A DNA stretch of 34,065 bases from Planctomycetota bacterium (lineage in GTDB: Bacteria > Planctomycetota > Brocadiia > Brocadiales > Brocadiaceae), in contig JAHFOW010000001.1 of NCBI GenBank assembly GCA_023261465.1, positions 1 through 34,065 on the forward strand. The letters run 5' to 3'. The number at the start of each line of letters is the position of its first letter. The first letter of the stretch is position 1. The position numbers were made by a program, and so were the translations under genes. This document shows positions 7,778 to 19,154 of this stretch, in pieces. The notes under the pieces are model-generated. The model was not told where the DNA came from, made no database searches, and worked only from the letters and a program-made list of their open reading frames with translations.

Positions 7778-7791
7778 AAGGAAGATTATAT

Positions 7792-8091
7792 ATGAAGAAT
7801 GTAGATTTTCTGGACTACGTATTTACACTTGAAACACTGGTTGATGACAATAACTGCATGTCTTTATTTTTAAAATGCAGACACAAGGATTATACGCGAT
7901 CGGTAAGATGTCAGCTAATGAACGAAGAATTACACTCATTTGGAAATGCCGCAATTTATGGATTCATGAATATACTAAAAGACAAGCTAAACAGCATCTT
8001 AATTAAAGAAGGGCTGTTAACAGTAAATGTTAGTAAGCCTAAAGTCATACCGATACATAGTAAAACATTGTATAAAGTTGAGGAAAAATGA
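7792..8091 (+). CDS. Hypothetical protein (99 aa)
   Basis: ORF with an AAGGAAG Shine-Dalgarno. Its stop overlaps the next start (ATGA). Confidence 0.6.
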   Translation: MKNVDFLDYVFTLETLVDDNNCMSLFLKCRHKDYTRSVRCQLMNEELHSFGNAAIYGFMNILKDKLNSILIKEGLLTVNVSKPKVIPIHSKTLYKVEEK

Positions 8092-9729: not shown

Positions 9730-9830
9730 ACTATAATCACCAGGATAAATACCGGTATTTTTACATTTAATAATCAATGTGACAATAAAAAAGATTGTAA
9801 TTTAACGATATATAATCAAGGAGAACATCT

Positions 9831-10480: not shown

Positions 10481-10746
10481 AATGGATAAGCGTTAAAGAA
10501 AGATTGCCAGAACACCAACAAATAGTATTGGTTTTTGCAAAGACTCAAAGAGGGACTGATGGTTATGGCGTGGCAACTTTTGTCAACTCTCATAAAATGA
10601 ATGAAGAATTAAAAAATGGACCTTATGCCAACGAGTGTGTTGATCTGAAAAAAAATCCTTATTTTTTTTGTTCCCAAGAGGTGAAACGGCATACATTCAA
10701 TAATGTTTCCCATTGGATGGTTTTACAAAAACCCCTATGCAAATAA
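10477..10746 (+). CDS. DUF551 domain protein (89 aa)
   Basis: MKWISVKERLPE...VSHWMVLQKP has the classic DUF551 termini as recalled. Confidence 0.6.
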   Translation: MKWISVKERLPEHQQIVLVFAKTQRGTDGYGVATFVNSHKMNEELKNGPYANECVDLKKNPYFFCSQEVKRHTFNNVSHWMVLQKPLCK

Positions 10747-10816
10747 GGTACACCCTTTGGGTCTCTCAAGAACCAGTCAATAAACCCCCTGAATATAATT
10801 ATTTTTATAACCTTTA

Positions 10817-10844
10817 TGGACAAGTATTCAAAAGGTGATATGAT
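10817..10844 (+). promoter_or_regulatory. Sigma70-like promoter feeding the structured element
   Basis: TGGACA (10817-10822), a 16-nt spacer, then TATGAT (10839-10844). The predicted start is near 10851. Confidence 0.5.
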
Positions 10845-10849
10845 TGTGC

Positions 10850-11018
10850 TATGACAATCGCGGCGTGGACAGTGACACGCGCCAGAGACTATAGAATCTG
10901 GATTAACAAGGCAGGTCTATAGCGGTATGAATGATGCCGATGTATAGAGAACGAAACATTCTAGTCCTCTTTGGTAGCGACAGTTAATGAGCAGGTGCAA
11001 TTCCTGCCGATTGTCATA
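10850..11018 (+). other. GC-rich ORF-free element bounded by an inverted repeat. It is a candidate structured ncRNA or leader, or a candidate invertible segment.
   Basis: TATGACAATCG (10850-10860) is perfectly complementary to CGATTGTCATA (11008-11018). Internal hairpins lie at 10863-10880, 10882-10901 and 10991-11007. No ORF is plausible, and the flanks are AT-rich. Confidence 0.4.
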
Positions 11019-11054
11019 AACTACTAAATTGGTAGACATCGTTAGGTAATTGTT

Positions 11055-11282
11055 ATGAGCGATTTTACAAAAGAAGAACTCACAAAAATAAAAGATGGAT
11101 TAAACAGTAGTAACGCGCGAACTAGTCCAGATTTAGACAAAATTCTATATAAAATAAATAATCTCATAGGAAATTATTGTGATCACCATTATTTGCGTAT
11201 GAGTAAAATGCAATGGCATATATGTACGGACTGCTTAAATCCATTTAATCTTTCAAAAAAAGAGCAATTGAATAATGATTAA
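11055..11282 (+). CDS. Small CxH...CxxC protein, paralog family member C
   Basis: FTKEEL...YKINNLIGNYCDHHY...CTDC aligns with the products of 8088..8303 and 8511..8747. Confidence 0.6.
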   Translation: MSDFTKEELTKIKDGLNSSNARTSPDLDKILYKINNLIGNYCDHHYLRMSKMQWHICTDCLNPFNLSKKEQLNND

Positions 11283-11291
11283 TTTAAAGAA

Positions 11292-11882
11292 ATGAGCCAT
11301 CAGGTTATTGGCTACGTACGTGTATCATCACAGGGACAAAATACGGCCAGACAATTATCAGGGATAGAATTAGATATGGAATTTGTAGACAAGATTACAG
11401 GAAGCACAGCTGACCGAGAGAAATTACAGCAATGTATCGCGTATGCTCGAAAGGGCGATACGGTTATTGTAGATAGTATCGATAGATTGGCGCGAAATTT
11501 GCGTGACCTTCAGGATATTCTTACCAAGCTTACTACTAAAGGCGTGATAGTTAAATTTGTAAAAGAAAATCTTGTTTTCACGGGTAATGATGATGCTATG
11601 TCTACACTTATGTTACAGATGATGGGCGCTTTTGCGGAATTTGAGCGAACTATGATTAAAAGTCGGCAGCGAGAAGGTATCGATGCTGCTAAGAAAGCGG
11701 GAAAGCATATGGGTCGTCCAAAAAAAGTAACGCCTGAATTATCCTTAGATGTTGTAAGGCTTAGTTCGGAAGGAAAAAGCATTCGTGCAATAGCAAAAGA
11801 GGTAGATCTTGGGCGCTCTACGGTTCAAAGAATACTAGGGACAAAGGTCTCTGCTCAAAAAACAAGAGAGGTAATATGGTAA
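11292..11882 (+). CDS. Small serine recombinase (resolvase/invertase family, 196 aa)
   Basis: The N-terminal catalytic motif is IGYVRVSSQGQ. It also has DSIDRLARN and GAFAEFER, and a C-terminal HTH (SIRAIAKEVDLGRSTVQRIL). Domain order and size match gamma-delta resolvase and Hin. Confidence 0.85.
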   Translation: MSHQVIGYVRVSSQGQNTARQLSGIELDMEFVDKITGSTADREKLQQCIAYARKGDTVIVDSIDRLARNLRDLQDILTKLTTKGVIVKFVKENLVFTGNDDAMSTLMLQMMGAFAEFERTMIKSRQREGIDAAKKAGKHMGRPKKVTPELSLDVVRLSSEGKSIRAIAKEVDLGRSTVQRILGTKVSAQKTREVIW

Positions 11883-12166
11883 TGGCTAATCAAAGAGACA
11901 TGATTTCAAGCGAAGAGGCTCGAATTATGTTGTTAGAGCAAAAGAATGATGATTTTCATCAGACTTTAATTCGTCTTGAATCCATCTTGGATTCAATGGA
12001 TAAAAAGTTTGAAACCAAATTTGATGGGATAGATAAAAAATTCGATTCTCAGAACGCTAAAATCGACTCCCATTTCAAATGGACCATAACATTGTTTCTG
12101 GGCCTCTATGGAACCGTAGTTGGCACGCTTATCACGGCATTGGGCAAAGCGTATCATTGGTTTTAA
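11876..12166 (+). CDS. DUF1640-like coiled-coil protein with a C-terminal transmembrane helix (96 aa)
   Basis: Repeated KKFETKFDGIDKKFDSQNAKIDSHFKW is followed by the hydrophobic segment TITLFLGLYGTVVGTLITALG. The start overlaps the recombinase stop (ATG 11876 or 11882). Confidence 0.55.
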   Translation: MVMANQRDMISSEEARIMLLEQKNDDFHQTLIRLESILDSMDKKFETKFDGIDKKFDSQNAKIDSHFKWTITLFLGLYGTVVGTLITALGKAYHWF

Positions 12167-16134: not shown

Positions 16135-16437
16135 TTAACTGCCCCATGCCACATTGGTTGCTGCTGTTCCTGTTGTATTTACTCGTATTGAGAAAATAGG
16201 ATGCCACACACCTGCTGCCAATCCGACAAGAGTCTGATCGGTGCCGTCCCATTTTGTGTATGAGACATCACCTGCGCCGCCGACATAAAGCCAGCGTGCG
16301 AATTCTACTGAGTTATTAGGGCCATAATATTCATCTAAAGTGGCATCCCCAGTACGGGCCACTCCAGACATGACCCGTGTTGGACCTGTATACGCATTGG
16401 GGTCTAATGGTGTTATTTGACATAATTGTACGGCCAT
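16135..16437 (-). CDS. Hypothetical virion or tail-associated protein (100 aa)
   Basis: A GGAGA Shine-Dalgarno is present. It lies between two fibre genes. Confidence 0.55.
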   Translation of the reverse strand: MAVQLCQITPLDPNAYTGPTRVMSGVARTGDATLDEYYGPNNSVEFARWLYVGGAGDVSYTKWDGTDQTLVGLAAGVWHPIFSIRVNTTGTAATNVAWGS

Positions 16438-16449
16438 ATTTTTAATCTC

Positions 16450-18066
16450 CTAAAGTTTTATAAACACATTCATGAAACTGGTCGGTTGAATAATCGATGT
16501 GGGAGTTGCAACCCCAAAAGACCAATCGACAGGCGTATTATTGGCGGGAGCTTTTGCTGCTCCAACTGGGTTAAAGTTGAATGAGCCAGTGCCAACATCG
16601 GGGTTATAAGGCGTTCCTACCGGCAAATTGCTTCCTGTGAGGACGACCGTTTCACCGCCAACAAATTGGCCTAATACTCGACCTGTTAATCCTGATCCCG
16701 AGCCCGATTCTGCCAAAGCGCGCCCTAAAGTTCGTGGCAACGTCATGGTCTTACCGGCTATAAAATCGGCTATGGCATTAGCCATTGTGTTTCCTGGCGC
16801 TGTTCGACCACCACTGACTGGAGCATAGGTATCCGATACCGTAGTATAAAGAGTCGAATAGAGCTGGAAGGTGTCCTGATTGGCACGGTTTAAAGCACCC
16901 GATCCCACATTACCTATTGTGCTGTCGTTCATGGCAAGCCATCCTTGCGGAGGATTTGACCAATAGCTTGTTTTAACATCGCCTGTTCGTGGAGTCTGAT
17001 CTATGGAATCAATCTGATCGTATGAATCAAATTCAATATTAGGGCTTACTGTTCCTAAATATAAAGAGGGCTTTGTAAACAAAATATCGCAGGCGCTTCC
17101 AAGAGGCATTTCTATTTGAATATAAAGCGCATCATCATCGGTCTGTTGTCCTGGTGTTCCTAAGGAGCCCGCAGCCACACTGGGCACAACAAAAGTTACC
17201 GAATAGGCCGTCCATGTCGTTGTGAGAACCATAGGCTGAGCAGTGGACCGCACATCACCTGTAGATGCCGTGCCTGATCCATAATACTGGCGCGTATAAA
17301 TATTAATAGTAGCAGGCGTTGTCGTTACCGCCGCCCAAACCCTAAAAGTGACCTGCTGATTTGAAAGGTTTTTTACCTTTTGCGTTATTGGGAATTGAAA
17401 GCATTTATACATCTCACCTGTTGGGGTGTTATTACATACGTATCGTATATAGCTAACCGGAGTAACATCCCCTGTTAAAGGCGCGTTTGCCAGGGCAAAT
17501 GTAGGAAAGCTCACGGAATCAACAGCATTCGTATTGTTTTTTACAAATCGAATATCCGGACCAAGTGTACCAAAGCCCCCTACAGGAGACAAAGGGTTTG
17601 CCTGTGCTGGAGTAAACCCTTTATGATTGGATGGCGCTATCAAAAGGTTAGTCGGTAATGGTCCTGCATCATCATCAGCATGATTTATAAACTGATTATT
17701 ACTTATATAGTTTCGAAGGGATATGTAAGTGGTTCCACCACCGCCACCACCGGAACCTGAAGAACCAGGATAATCATCTACCTGCCAGATTAAATCCACG
17801 CCGTTGGCGTCAAACACCTGTATAAAGTACAAGTCATCTGGATGAGTTGAATCCACCTTCCAAAAAAATGGACCATTAGTGCCATTGGCATTAAAAATAA
17901 CAGGGTTAGTGTAGGGAATGGTTCCTGCTTCATCCTGATACACAGCCTTTGGTTCCGAGTTATTCAGGCTGCTGTACGTATACATTTTAGCACCGCCAGC
18001 AAGACGTCCATTAAGCCCTATGATGGACCAGATGGGCTCTGGGGCCTGAAAATACGATATTGGCAT
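16450..18066 (-). CDS. Tail fibre or tailspike protein (538 aa)
   Basis: I chose the ATG at 18066 (MPISYFQAPEP...) because AGGAA lies 8 nt upstream. It has an N-terminal ...YTYSSLNNSEPKAVYQDEAGTIPYTNPVIFNANG anchor-like domain, a GSSGSGGGGGG linker and a large T/S/G-rich C-terminal domain. Confidence 0.7.
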   Translation of the reverse strand: MPISYFQAPEPIWSIIGLNGRLAGGAKMYTYSSLNNSEPKAVYQDEAGTIPYTNPVIFNANGTNGPFFWKVDSTHPDDLYFIQVFDANGVDLIWQVDDYPGSSGSGGGGGGTTYISLRNYISNNQFINHADDDAGPLPTNLLIAPSNHKGFTPAQANPLSPVGGFGTLGPDIRFVKNNTNAVDSVSFPTFALANAPLTGDVTPVSYIRYVCNNTPTGEMYKCFQFPITQKVKNLSNQQVTFRVWAAVTTTPATINIYTRQYYGSGTASTGDVRSTAQPMVLTTTWTAYSVTFVVPSVAAGSLGTPGQQTDDDALYIQIEMPLGSACDILFTKPSLYLGTVSPNIEFDSYDQIDSIDQTPRTGDVKTSYWSNPPQGWLAMNDSTIGNVGSGALNRANQDTFQLYSTLYTTVSDTYAPVSGGRTAPGNTMANAIADFIAGKTMTLPRTLGRALAESGSGSGLTGRVLGQFVGGETVVLTGSNLPVGTPYNPDVGTGSFNFNPVGAAKAPANNTPVDWSFGVATPTSIIQPTSFMNVFIKL

Positions 18067-18245
18067 ATTCACATTCCTTGTGATAATTAAATCATTATTT
18101 ATACAAATAATGCTTGTTATTTGTCCACGAAATGCATTAATATGCATTTTTTAAAATCAATTGGTCCTCTTATGATCGAGTCTTTACTAACCTTATTTTT
18201 CATATACAACATTATTCAAATCTTTATCCAAAAAGACGTGGAATT

Positions 18246-19154
18246 TTAATCCGGTTTCATCATTACTAATTTTTTAAAAAGGTCTATTAATGCATTTTTT
18301 GGCAAAGCATATGCACCGCCTGCAATCGCTAATGCATTACGATAGGGCTTAAATTTCATGTAACGTCTGTAGTCATCCTGTCCTCTGGTTAGTAGGTCTG
18401 CTATATCTTCATGACCTTCTTTTCTTAAAGACTGTTTCATTTCATCAAGAATATTTCCTCTAACCTGAAGTCCTGCTCTTCCATGTGCTCTATTGGCTTT
18501 AGAGAACCAATCCTTAGATAATCCACCGGCATGTTTTCCCAGGTCCGATTGTAAGTCAAATAAACGATTATAATCCCCGTAACCTGCGTCATTTATTAAA
18601 TTGCGATAAGGTGTTGTATTAGGGAAAAATTGTCGCGTATCTTCTATTAAATCTGGATTGACTTCTAAGGGGGCAATGTTTTTCTCTCTACCAATTTCGC
18701 GTGCCTTTTGTAAATTCCTGCTTGCTCCGCGTCTGGCAAGGTAGGGCAGCAACTTCATACCTCGTAATGCATTTAGACCCATCAAAACATCCGGACCATA
18801 TTCGAAGCTTTTTTGAACAACATAATCCGTGGGAGTATTTTCACCGGGATTTCTAAACACATTTTGATAATCAGCTGTATCTTTCGGAATATAATTAGAA
18901 ATATTTTGTCTTTTTCTTGGCATTCCTGGCAACACATCAAAAGCACTCCCAATGCCTTGGATTGATTTTTCAAGGCTACTGACAATATCATGGGGTAAGT
19001 TATGTAAATTACGACCTGCATGCGTTAGGCCTACCCCAATATTTGGCAACAATTTTCCAAGAAATGACTCTGGTTCGCTCGACGTATTTTCAAATAAATC
19101 TCGTGGCGCCCTTGGTGTTGATGTATCGTTTGAAGCAAAGAGGTCTTTAGCCAT
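18246..19154 (-). CDS. Internal virion / ejection-like protein (302 aa)
   Basis: Called from its position between the Q/G-rich proteins and the fibres. The start overlaps the upstream stop. No specific motif was recognised. Confidence 0.45.
   Translation of the reverse strand: MAKDLFASNDTSTPRAPRDLFENTSSEPESFLGKLLPNIGVGLTHAGRNLHNLPHDIVSSLEKSIQGIGSAFDVLPGMPRKRQNISNYIPKDTADYQNVFRNPGENTPTDYVVQKSFEYGPDVLMGLNALRGMKLLPYLARRGASRNLQKAREIGREKNIAPLEVNPDLIEDTRQFFPNTTPYRNLINDAGYGDYNRLFDLQSDLGKHAGGLSKDWFSKANRAHGRAGLQVRGNILDEMKQSLRKEGHEDIADLLTRGQDDYRRYMKFKPYRNALAIAGGAYALPKNALIDLFKKLVMMKPD

Follow-up and report, generated by a model that had tools for sequence, protein, structure and literature searches.

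What kind of element lies in the gap just upstream of a serine recombinase gene in a 34,065-nucleotide (nt) stretch of DNA catalogued under a Planctomycetota bacterium (contig JAHFOW010000001.1 of assembly GCA_023261465.1), where a perfect inverted repeat encloses a short segment? The stretch, which we refer to at its full length as the window, is a tailed-phage genome with genes for a Sak4-like annealing protein, SSB, portal, major head protein and large terminase. An initial annotation of the gap had set two readings side by side: a structured RNA of about 170 nt outside the known families, or a leader of the 11055-12166 operon, on the one hand, and an inverton switched by the neighbouring recombinase on the other. 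The comparative analysis presented here upholds the RNA and, through covariation in a conserved frame, sharpens it to a tRNA-shaped RNA. We are highly confident that the element is a conserved tRNA-like RNA gene. The fuller description, which we consider probable, is that positions 10853-11016 of the + strand are the gene for a ~165-nt tRNA-shaped noncoding RNA (ncRNA) that carries a lineage-specific structured domain and belongs to a phage family outside Rfam. In relatives the element occupies slots in tRNA arrays, and it is independent of the recombinase.

Conservation of both ends on other contigs

The last 26 nt of the element occur exactly in nine IMG/VR viral contigs, and in eight of these the first ~30 nt are also conserved, with 110-190 unalignable nt between the two ends; the ninth (locus L031) is a decayed copy in which the 5' strand of the acceptor-like stem described below is gone. 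A looser 3' pattern retrieved 26 IMG/VR loci, all with the T-arm and acceptor 3' strand of the frame, and a looser 5' pattern, which specifies only 15 bases and matches mostly by chance, gave 69 IMG/VR matches with some 20 real members among them. In metagenomes the looser patterns yielded 58 loci, chance matches included. Loci were retained only if the paired partner arm was present, and at least 48 distinct members on viral and metagenome contigs have both ends and both hairpins in the same arrangement. Judged from the conservation of both ends in these sequences from other contigs, the feature is real. A further scan recovered variants in which UUCAAUU or UUCGAAU, both canonical, forms the T-like loop. 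In several phages the element is present two or three times, each time with another insert (L041; L114 and L131 on one contig). No second copy was found in the window with a frame-only covariance model, which is unable to span the 110-nt insert and reported the two halves of the element separately, at 28.5 and 27.4 bits.

Beyond these contigs the element was not encountered: a BLASTN search with 10700-11100 had no match in 50,697 GenBank phage records, and in 185,579 species genomes the 5' pattern had no match and the 3' pattern nine, all of them chance matches without a 5' partner. Apart from the window's own contig, look-ups of exact proteins returned one 1.2-kb ENA fragment, which stops short of the element and so provides no population variation. 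The remark in the initial annotation that no known RNA family is recognisable has been borne out, as Rfam 15 at gathering score gives no match in the window, and at E values up to 10 nothing meaningful appears around the element, including for the models of tRNA (RF00005, gathering score 29 bits), tRNA-Sec and tmRNA. On 20 member loci, Rfam matched only tRNA genes. ARAGORN found neither a tRNA nor a tmRNA gene in the window, reported nothing for the element in relaxed and intron modes, and called no tmRNA in any member; its whole-element calls of intron-containing tRNAs in L036, L066 and L148 are regarded as spurious. The family may be represented among the 10,006 candidate structured RNAs of viruses in a published catalogue (PMC10690425).

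As a separate observation, in L030 (~7790-7830) and L031 (~9780-9815) the final 11-12 nt of the element (ATTGTCAACTT) recur 13 nt further downstream, perhaps as a vestige of 3'-end recombination.

A covarying frame selected as RNA

For the analysis of the frame, the 5' 32 nt were joined to the 3' 32 nt in 48 sequences, and base pairs were counted for three helices. Helix 1 is an 8-base-pair (bp) terminal stem (GACAAUCG/CGAUUGUC); helix 2 is a 5-bp hairpin with an 8-nt loop that begins 2 nt past the terminal stem; and helix 3 is a 5-bp hairpin with a 7-nt loop that abuts the 3' strand of the terminal stem directly. The covariation is extensive: standard pairs fill 99.5% of the 859 helix cells, compensatory changes on both sides occur in 11 of the 18 pairs (63 double-change cells), none of 500 column shuffles reaches any of five pairing measures, and pairing falls to 27-46% when the partners are slid by 1-3 columns. 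All five pairs of helix 2 change on both sides (e.g. GC to UA, UA to CG), with 99.1% of cells paired, as do four of the five in helix 3, where the loop-closing G-C is invariant. The terminal stem, by comparison, is near-invariant in sequence (99.7% of cells paired, nine of them G·U), with one pair that shifts from GC to UA on both sides in two sequences. Across the whole frame there are 23 G·U or U·G cells vs four unpaired cells. Because these 23 would be A·C mismatches on the opposite strand, the selected structure is read as + strand RNA and not as a DNA repeat. In keeping with the fold check proposed at the outset, the + strand of the element has a predicted folding energy of -57.2 kcal/mol (z = -4.45), and the - strand folds less well (z = -3.16).

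Likeness to tRNA

The order of parts, namely stem, 2 nt, hairpin, insert, hairpin and stem, is that of a tRNA, with an acceptor stem, a D arm and a T arm with a 7-nt loop in their proper places and with an 8-bp acceptor, G55 and the D-like loop GACAGUGA as deviations (Table 1). The likeness of the 3' hairpin to a T arm, which the initial annotation had pointed out, holds in detail: in what we take to be the corresponding tRNA numbering, the loop has U at 54, C at 56 and A at 58, and its closing G-C stands as G53-C61. The flanking nucleotides are tRNA-like as well. A U stands at position -1 in 42 of the 48 members (U10852 in the window) and an A follows the stem in 34, and the tails read N-CCA in nine (~0.75 expected), N-CC in 19 and N-C in 33. 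In the window copy the terminal helix reaches out to 10850 and 11018, giving the 11-bp arm. Column 12 of the linker (C) is at least 90% conserved, and column 13 is mostly G, with A in most other rows.

Table 1. Parts of the element and its candidate promoter in the window
Feature	Position	Strand	Details
Sigma-70-like promoter candidate	10817..10844	+	-35 TGGACA 10817-10822, 16-nt spacer, TG-extended -10 TATGAT 10839-10844
Acceptor-like stem, 5' strand	10853..10860	+	GACAAUCG; columns 4-11 pair with 52-59
2-nt linker	10861..10862	+	CG, in place of tRNA positions 8-9
D-arm-like hairpin	10863..10880	+	GCGUG/CACGC, stem 10863-10867/10876-10880; 8-nt loop GACAGUGA 10868-10875
Variable 110-nt domain	10881..10990	+	In place of the anticodon arm; interiors differ between members
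T-arm-like hairpin	10991..11007	+	GCAGG/CCUGC, stem 10991-10995/11003-11007; 7-nt loop UGCAAUU
Acceptor-like stem, 3' strand, and discriminator-like A11016	11008..11016	+	CGAUUGUC; stem strand 11008-11015

Genomic context points in the same direction in several relatives. In L050 the element sits between tRNA-Pro and tRNA-Met with the 5-8-nt spacers typical of that array, in L051 it sits between tRNA-Asn and tRNA-Gln, and in L040, L041, L052 and L107 it adjoins tRNAs. The window's own phage has no tRNA genes according to ARAGORN.

The same acceptor sequence also occurs in tRNA-like genes of canonical size, and because of this the family appears to descend from irregular tRNAs whose acceptor stem has 8 bp; the irregular genes of canonical size probably represent the ancestral lineage of the large family. 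One such gene (L125, 694-764, - strand) reaches 35.7 bits with the Rfam tRNA model and has ...UGAUUGUC-A-CCA at its end. Others, of 79-80 nt and labelled 'tRNA-???' by ARAGORN, share the acceptor and have the linker UA (TA in the genes), a D loop of the normal kind (AGAUGGUA) and UUCAAAU as T loop. Compared with these genes, the subfamily of the window has C for U at position 8 and G for A at 14. In addition, G for U at 55 is combined with a changed D loop, which may represent tertiary covariation.

Several irregular tRNA genes of 72-80 nt with the acceptor GACAATCN/NGATTGTC were noted in passing (L186, L188, L196, L197, L199, L202 and the L125 gene at 694-764); their D and T loops are normal and their anticodon regions abnormal. 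Also of interest are tandem small RNAs upstream of the element in L074, L166 and L180, which end in an 8-bp or 4-bp stem plus A-CCA and are separated by the spacer GTTTAT. They include a 49-nt 'minihelix' in L180 (GCCAATAG...CTATTGGC-A-CCA) and, in all three loci, a ~60-nt unit (GGCC(A/G)ACGATACT...GGGAAAATAGGCC-A-CCA), and they look like further uncatalogued families of tRNA-like RNAs.

The inverted repeat and other signals in the window

The observation from which the inquiry started, an exact reverse complementarity between TATGACAATCG (10850-10860) and CGATTGTCATA (11008-11018), is correct. On its own it is weak evidence and not beyond chance, because perfect 11-mer inverted pairs with a gap of at most 200 nt number seven in the window vs 2.6 +/- 2.1 in dinucleotide shuffles; the part of the arms conserved in relatives is only 8-9 bp. 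Among the other such pairs, those at 945-955/965-975 and 25692-25702/25711-25721 have gaps of 8-9 nt and look like simple hairpins or terminators, and the pair at 3952-3962/4091-4101 encloses 128 bp.

The local hairpins listed in the initial annotation, GCGTG/CACGC, GCAGG/CCTGC around TGCAATT, and CCAGA/TCTGG (10882-10886/10897-10901), are all present where it placed them. Its other statements on the gap held in part. The whole element is indeed rich in G+C (47.9%) relative to its flanks (30-34%), but the interior alone, at 41.8%, matches the window average of 42.2%. The gap is not free of open reading frames (ORFs), with two short ones of 41 aa (+) and 40 aa (-) that are probably meaningless. 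The letters of a third GATTGT copy and of the proposed alternative pairings are there but are conserved in no relative, and the same holds for the internal TTAACA-17-TATGAA, which moreover fails a promoter scan. A protein reading of the conserved 'ATGACAATCG...' was also tried and rejected: in the window a stop follows 23 codons in, and some members lack the ATG (TTTTGAC...).

The variable insert

Insert length in the 48 members runs from 32 to 158 nt (median 90). Between most members the inserts are unalignable, and BLAST detects only eight small groups of related ones. Constrained folding revealed no common architecture. For the window insert, the prediction is a Y-shaped domain with GCCAGAGG/CCUCUUUGGU as its closing stem and a short stretch on its 3' side. 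How such diversity arises is illustrated by L028 and L066, which occupy the same syntenic slot directly after an SSB-like gene and share 66% identity in the upstream DNA and 96% in the frame. Their interiors, at 47% identity in a forced global alignment and with no blastn match, are treated as unrelated; it follows that the insert has been replaced while the frame was kept. Where inserts are related, as in the pairs L037/L138 and L030/L117, substitutions in predicted helices are all compensatory or wobble changes that break no pair, in a test that compares two sequences at a time using structures predicted from the same alignments. The inserts thus appear hypervariable but locally structured.

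Some inserts hold structures of their own. Relaxed ARAGORN searches found low-scoring tRNA-like modules with D and T arms in the inserts of L051 (3056-3249), L114 (4604-4770), L132 (775-941) and L165 (794-959), which it reads as tRNAs with 2-nt 'anticodons' or as tRNA-Arg with a 46-nt intron. In L166, tRNA halves apparently stand in permuted order. In the window, the 3' end of the insert (10970-10990, GGUAGCGACAGUUAAUGA) partly resembles the D-loop region of the 5' frame (GGACAGUGA), and the frame model aligns there; this likeness could be the remnant of an internal duplication.

Transcription, neighbourhood and a proposed mechanism

The promoter proposed upstream of the element (TGGACA-16-TATGAT) is present; it agrees with the consensus at 10 of 12 positions and has a TG ahead of the -10, but five such sites occur in 1 kb vs 3.9 expected, and the match is not decisive. 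Its predicted start lies at ~10851-10852, 1-2 nt ahead of the stem. In about ten other members a -10-like hexamer ends 6-8 nt before G1, and the remaining upstream contexts include a tRNA or another RNA ending in CCA. Long ORFs around the element in ~47 contexts are predominantly co-oriented with it (158 vs 26 opposite). Just two kinds of neighbour recur often, a multi-copy family of 60-80-aa proteins and a large terminase gene downstream, the latter 0.3-3.4 kb away in 13 loci where the element marks the boundary between early and late genes. The suggestion that the element is a dedicated leader of the 11055-12166 operon is not supported by the comparison, as elsewhere it precedes unrelated genes or tRNA genes. 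Just downstream of it in the window, the 75-aa ORF 11055-11282 belongs to a multi-copy family of small Cys-rich proteins with the N-terminal motif DFTKEEL, with paralogues in the same phage (8511-8747, 8282-8521) and in 14 related loci and with no Pfam or PHROG match.

From these features a path from gene to product can be sketched. Transcription would proceed rightward from the promoter-like site, by read-through from the early operon, or both. Since no terminator was found between the element and the next gene in the window, the RNA is probably co-transcribed with the 11055 operon and cut out of the transcript, in which case the transcript would run on into that operon and excision would also set the 5' end of its mRNA. 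The top half of a tRNA, formed by the acceptor and T arm, is recognised together with the elbow by RNase P, RNase Z and the CCA-adding enzyme, and bacterial RNase P prefers a U at -1. The tRNA-like top half could accordingly serve as a handle, with RNase P cutting 5' of G10853, where U-1 is conserved, and with tRNA 3'-end enzymes trimming after A11016, followed by addition or repair of CCA. We lean towards such processing by the tRNA machinery. The outcome would be a stable RNA, L-shaped and presenting the variable domain. This domain might act as an effector, for example as a host-specific decoy or binding RNA, an idea favoured because it would explain the wholesale turnover of inserts; that the insert acts in trans is nevertheless a tentative proposal that we hold to be somewhat unlikely. 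Broader still, and doubtful, is the view of the frame as a general cassette for the expression, processing and stability of interchangeable host-specific RNA effectors, which might be decoys for RNA-guided or tRNA-targeting defence or protein-binding aptamers, with new inserts swapped in by recombination within the invariant frame; phages would then possess a natural 'tRNA scaffold' system that exchanges cassettes at the level of an RNA gene.

Weighing the alternatives

Several observations weigh against the interpretation of the element as a tRNA-shaped RNA with an exchangeable domain. It is not a canonical tRNA: the anticodon arm is replaced by 110 nt, neither ARAGORN nor RF00005 recognises it, and it scores nothing with the Rfam models of tRNA, tRNA-Sec or tmRNA. 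The window copy encodes no CCA (its tail is AUAAAC), has G at the position of U55 in the T loop and lacks the canonical GG in the D loop. Its insert has no relative among the 48 members, folds on its own only modestly better than shuffled sequences (z = -1.8) and has no antisense match to its own phage beyond 10 nt (10-14 nt in shuffled sequences). No conserved neighbouring protein family was found across the loci. A pure processing handle does not explain why the acceptor is nearly invariant when the other two helices are free to covary, a contrast that hints at a partner with sequence specificity. Finally, the transcript ends, the processing, the CCA addition and the L shape are all features that we infer.

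The inverton reading holds that the 147-bp segment between the 11-bp arms is flipped by the recombinase encoded at 11292-11882, thereby switching a promoter. Its appeal lies in the perfect inverted repeat ~270 bp upstream of a gene whose 196-aa product is a serine recombinase of the resolvase/invertase type, labelled DNA invertase in PHROGs. The comparative data remove most of this appeal. A homologue of the recombinase lies within 3.5 kb in only five of ~47 members, and the element has one orientation relative to its neighbours in every context examined. Conversely, among loci with a recombinase 59-73% identical to that of the window (L001-L012, L021), the element is present in L007 only and in none of the closest six (L001-L006). 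Only 8-9 bp of the arms are conserved, vs the ~26-bp dyad-symmetric sites of the hix/gix type, no such site with up to three mismatches occurs in the window, and the G·U-type changes in the arms would be mismatches in a DNA repeat. Repeats of 11 bp at such spacing arise by chance, the ends are asymmetric (a D-like vs a T-like hairpin), the element is embedded in tRNA arrays, and the internal promoter proposed for it is the one that fails the scan. We regard this reading as almost certainly wrong and the serine recombinase as an unrelated neighbour gene. Slightly less remote, and still very improbable, is another kind of DNA-level element, either a MITE-like sequence with terminal inverted repeats or an attP site copying part of a host tRNA gene, at which the recombinase would integrate the phage. 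Conserved ends around a variable middle, varying position among syntenic genes, the recombinase that adjoins the window copy and the duplicated terminal 12 nt of L030 and L031 (copied 13 nt downstream) would all suit it. The attP version, and with it a prophage or host tRNA source, was dropped because the frame is absent from the 185,579 species genomes, which leaves no host tRNA gene as attB. The window copy lacks a flanking target-site duplication; the ends are not inverted copies beyond 8-9 bp, covariation and G·U wobbles act on single-strand helices, and the strand always follows the local direction of transcription. A retron ncRNA (msr-msd) was considered and rejected, with no reverse transcriptase domain in the 24 window ORFs scanned, including all within ~2 kb, and no conserved protein partner.

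Two alternatives at the RNA level deserve more weight. The frame could be chiefly punctuation, directing RNase P and 3'-end enzymes to cut a polycistronic early transcript, with an insert that is mostly filler; this would uncouple the stability or translation of the upstream genes from those of the 11055-12166 operon or, in other phages, of early genes from the terminase operon. The missing terminator, the co-oriented neighbours, the 13 positions upstream of terminase and the pairing of a conserved frame with a sequence-unconstrained insert, as predicted for a pure processing signal, are consistent with such a role, which partly overlaps our preferred explanation. As the main function we consider it unlikely: it would be redundant inside tRNA arrays, where the adjacent tRNAs offer cleavage sites anyway; inserts have been retained, with lengths of 32-158 nt, instead of being lost, and related ones preserve their helices by compensatory changes; several phages have two or three copies with different inserts; and neither a near-invariant acceptor sequence nor CCA-like tails would be needed. 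Quite improbable, in our assessment, is a relative of tRNA that is aminoacylated or active in translation, whether tmRNA-like or an irregular tRNA with an enlarged anticodon domain. The 8+5-bp acceptor/T branch, the discriminator A, the CCA-like tails and an acceptor conserved as an identity element would be all speak for it; the shortest members (L125 and L131, 85 nt) allow a drawing with a 5-bp stem and a 7-nt loop (UGUCAUC or UGUCAUG) in which UCA takes the anticodon position; and irregular tRNAs with 8-bp acceptors are known from soil bacteria and phages (PMC5389517). These 85-nt members, however, have G at 33 and U at 37 in place of the usual U and purine, and most members, that of the window included, have neither a conserved anticodon arm nor a reading frame. 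The failure of ARAGORN and of the Rfam tRNA, tRNA-Sec and tmRNA models, the absence of G3·U70 and the range of insert lengths without common architecture count further against this alternative.

Two other inverted repeats in the window were recorded in the course of this work. A 32-nt imperfect repeat at 18125-18156/18271-18302 (81% complementary, with a perfect 13-bp core and flanking 114 bp) lies at the junction of the minus-strand tail-region genes 16450-18147 and 18246-19154, and its left arm extends over the downstream gene's start codon. The repeat could form an RNA structure, or it could be a more promising invertase substrate than the element. A 21-nt repeat (11338-11358/16422-16442, 86% complementary) has one arm in the recombinase gene, at its 5' end, and the other 5 kb off, close to where ORF 16135-16437 (-) starts; with ~0.2 such pairs estimated by chance in the region, it is borderline.

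Relation to known systems

The closest counterparts differ with the property compared: the T4 species 1 and 2 RNAs for function, tmRNA for topology, and tRNA-Sec and the tRNAs with 8-bp acceptors for acceptor geometry. The element is a member of none of these groups. The T4 RNAs (rnaC and rnaD) are likewise small stable RNAs (139 and 119 nt) that end a tRNA cluster, are co-oriented with the tRNAs and fall below the gathering score of every Rfam family; rnaC in addition has a canonical T arm directly before its 3' end. We know of no function for either, and their sequence record gives none. Unlike the element, to which they have no detectable sequence relation, they are not known as a family with a fixed frame and interchangeable inserts, and rnaC is without the clean 8-bp closing stem and the D-like hairpin. 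Taken as a descriptive class that implies no homology, the array position and orientation of these T4 RNAs are found again in L050, L051, L040, L041, L052 and L107.

In tmRNA (SsrA, phage versions included), as in the element, the ends form an acceptor stem on which a T arm is stacked, and a large domain takes the place of the anticodon arm. The element differs in lacking G3·U70, the third stem pair being C-G in 48 of 48 members (column 6/57) and the pair at that rank when counting from the second base (column 7/56) being A-U or G·U. It also has no conserved tag frame, no ARAGORN or Rfam match to tmRNA, and inserts as short as 32 nt. Whereas tmRNA has no D stem, the element has a real one. An 8+5-bp coaxial branch is that of bacterial tRNA-Sec, with which the element and the allo-tRNAs share the 8-bp acceptor stem; there is no Rfam tRNA-Sec match for the element. 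Irregular allo-tRNAs have been described from environmental bacteria and phages and from polycistronic arrays of irregular tRNAs (Mukai et al., PMC5389517). Those reported have 8/4 or 9/3 geometry and keep the anticodon arm, whereas the present family has 8/5 geometry and has lost the arm in most members.

Among other ncRNAs, the comparison with YrlA and with GOLLD and ROOL is instructive. The ends of YrlA RNA form the Ro-binding stem and its tRNA-like module is distal, whereas the ends of the element form the acceptor stem; some GOLLD RNAs hold tRNAs in their variable regions. YrlA, a Y-RNA-like ncRNA with a tRNA-mimicking module in bacteria and phages (Chen et al., PMC4201824), resembles the element in that combination, but the element has no Rfam match to it and no Ro/Rsr gene was found among the window ORFs scanned against Pfam or PHROGs. 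GOLLD and ROOL (PMC12286853) are also structured, often phage-borne RNAs beside tRNA genes, but are several times larger, with conserved cores, and form multimeric cages, and again there is no Rfam match for the element. With the Hin/Gin/Cin and Bacteroides Mpi invertons the element shares a short inverted repeat near a small serine recombinase gene, and it departs from them in linkage, orientation and the behaviour of the repeat.

Significance

Phage tRNA islands have long been known for stable RNAs other than tRNAs whose purpose is obscure, such as T4 species 1 and 2, GOLLD and ROOL. What is new in the present family among the tRNA-derived ncRNAs of such islands is the combination of a fixed frame with an interchangeable insert. 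The near-invariant, tRNA-derived frame with its swapped inserts, available in dozens of variants, separates processing and stability from a candidate effector module. For annotation, the lesson is that an inverted repeat beside a recombinase gene is not to be labelled an inverton without comparative evidence. If the inserts are host-specific effectors, the family would be nature's equivalent of the tRNA scaffolds engineered for the expression of recombinant RNAs, and it would offer a new place in which to seek RNA-based counter-defence.

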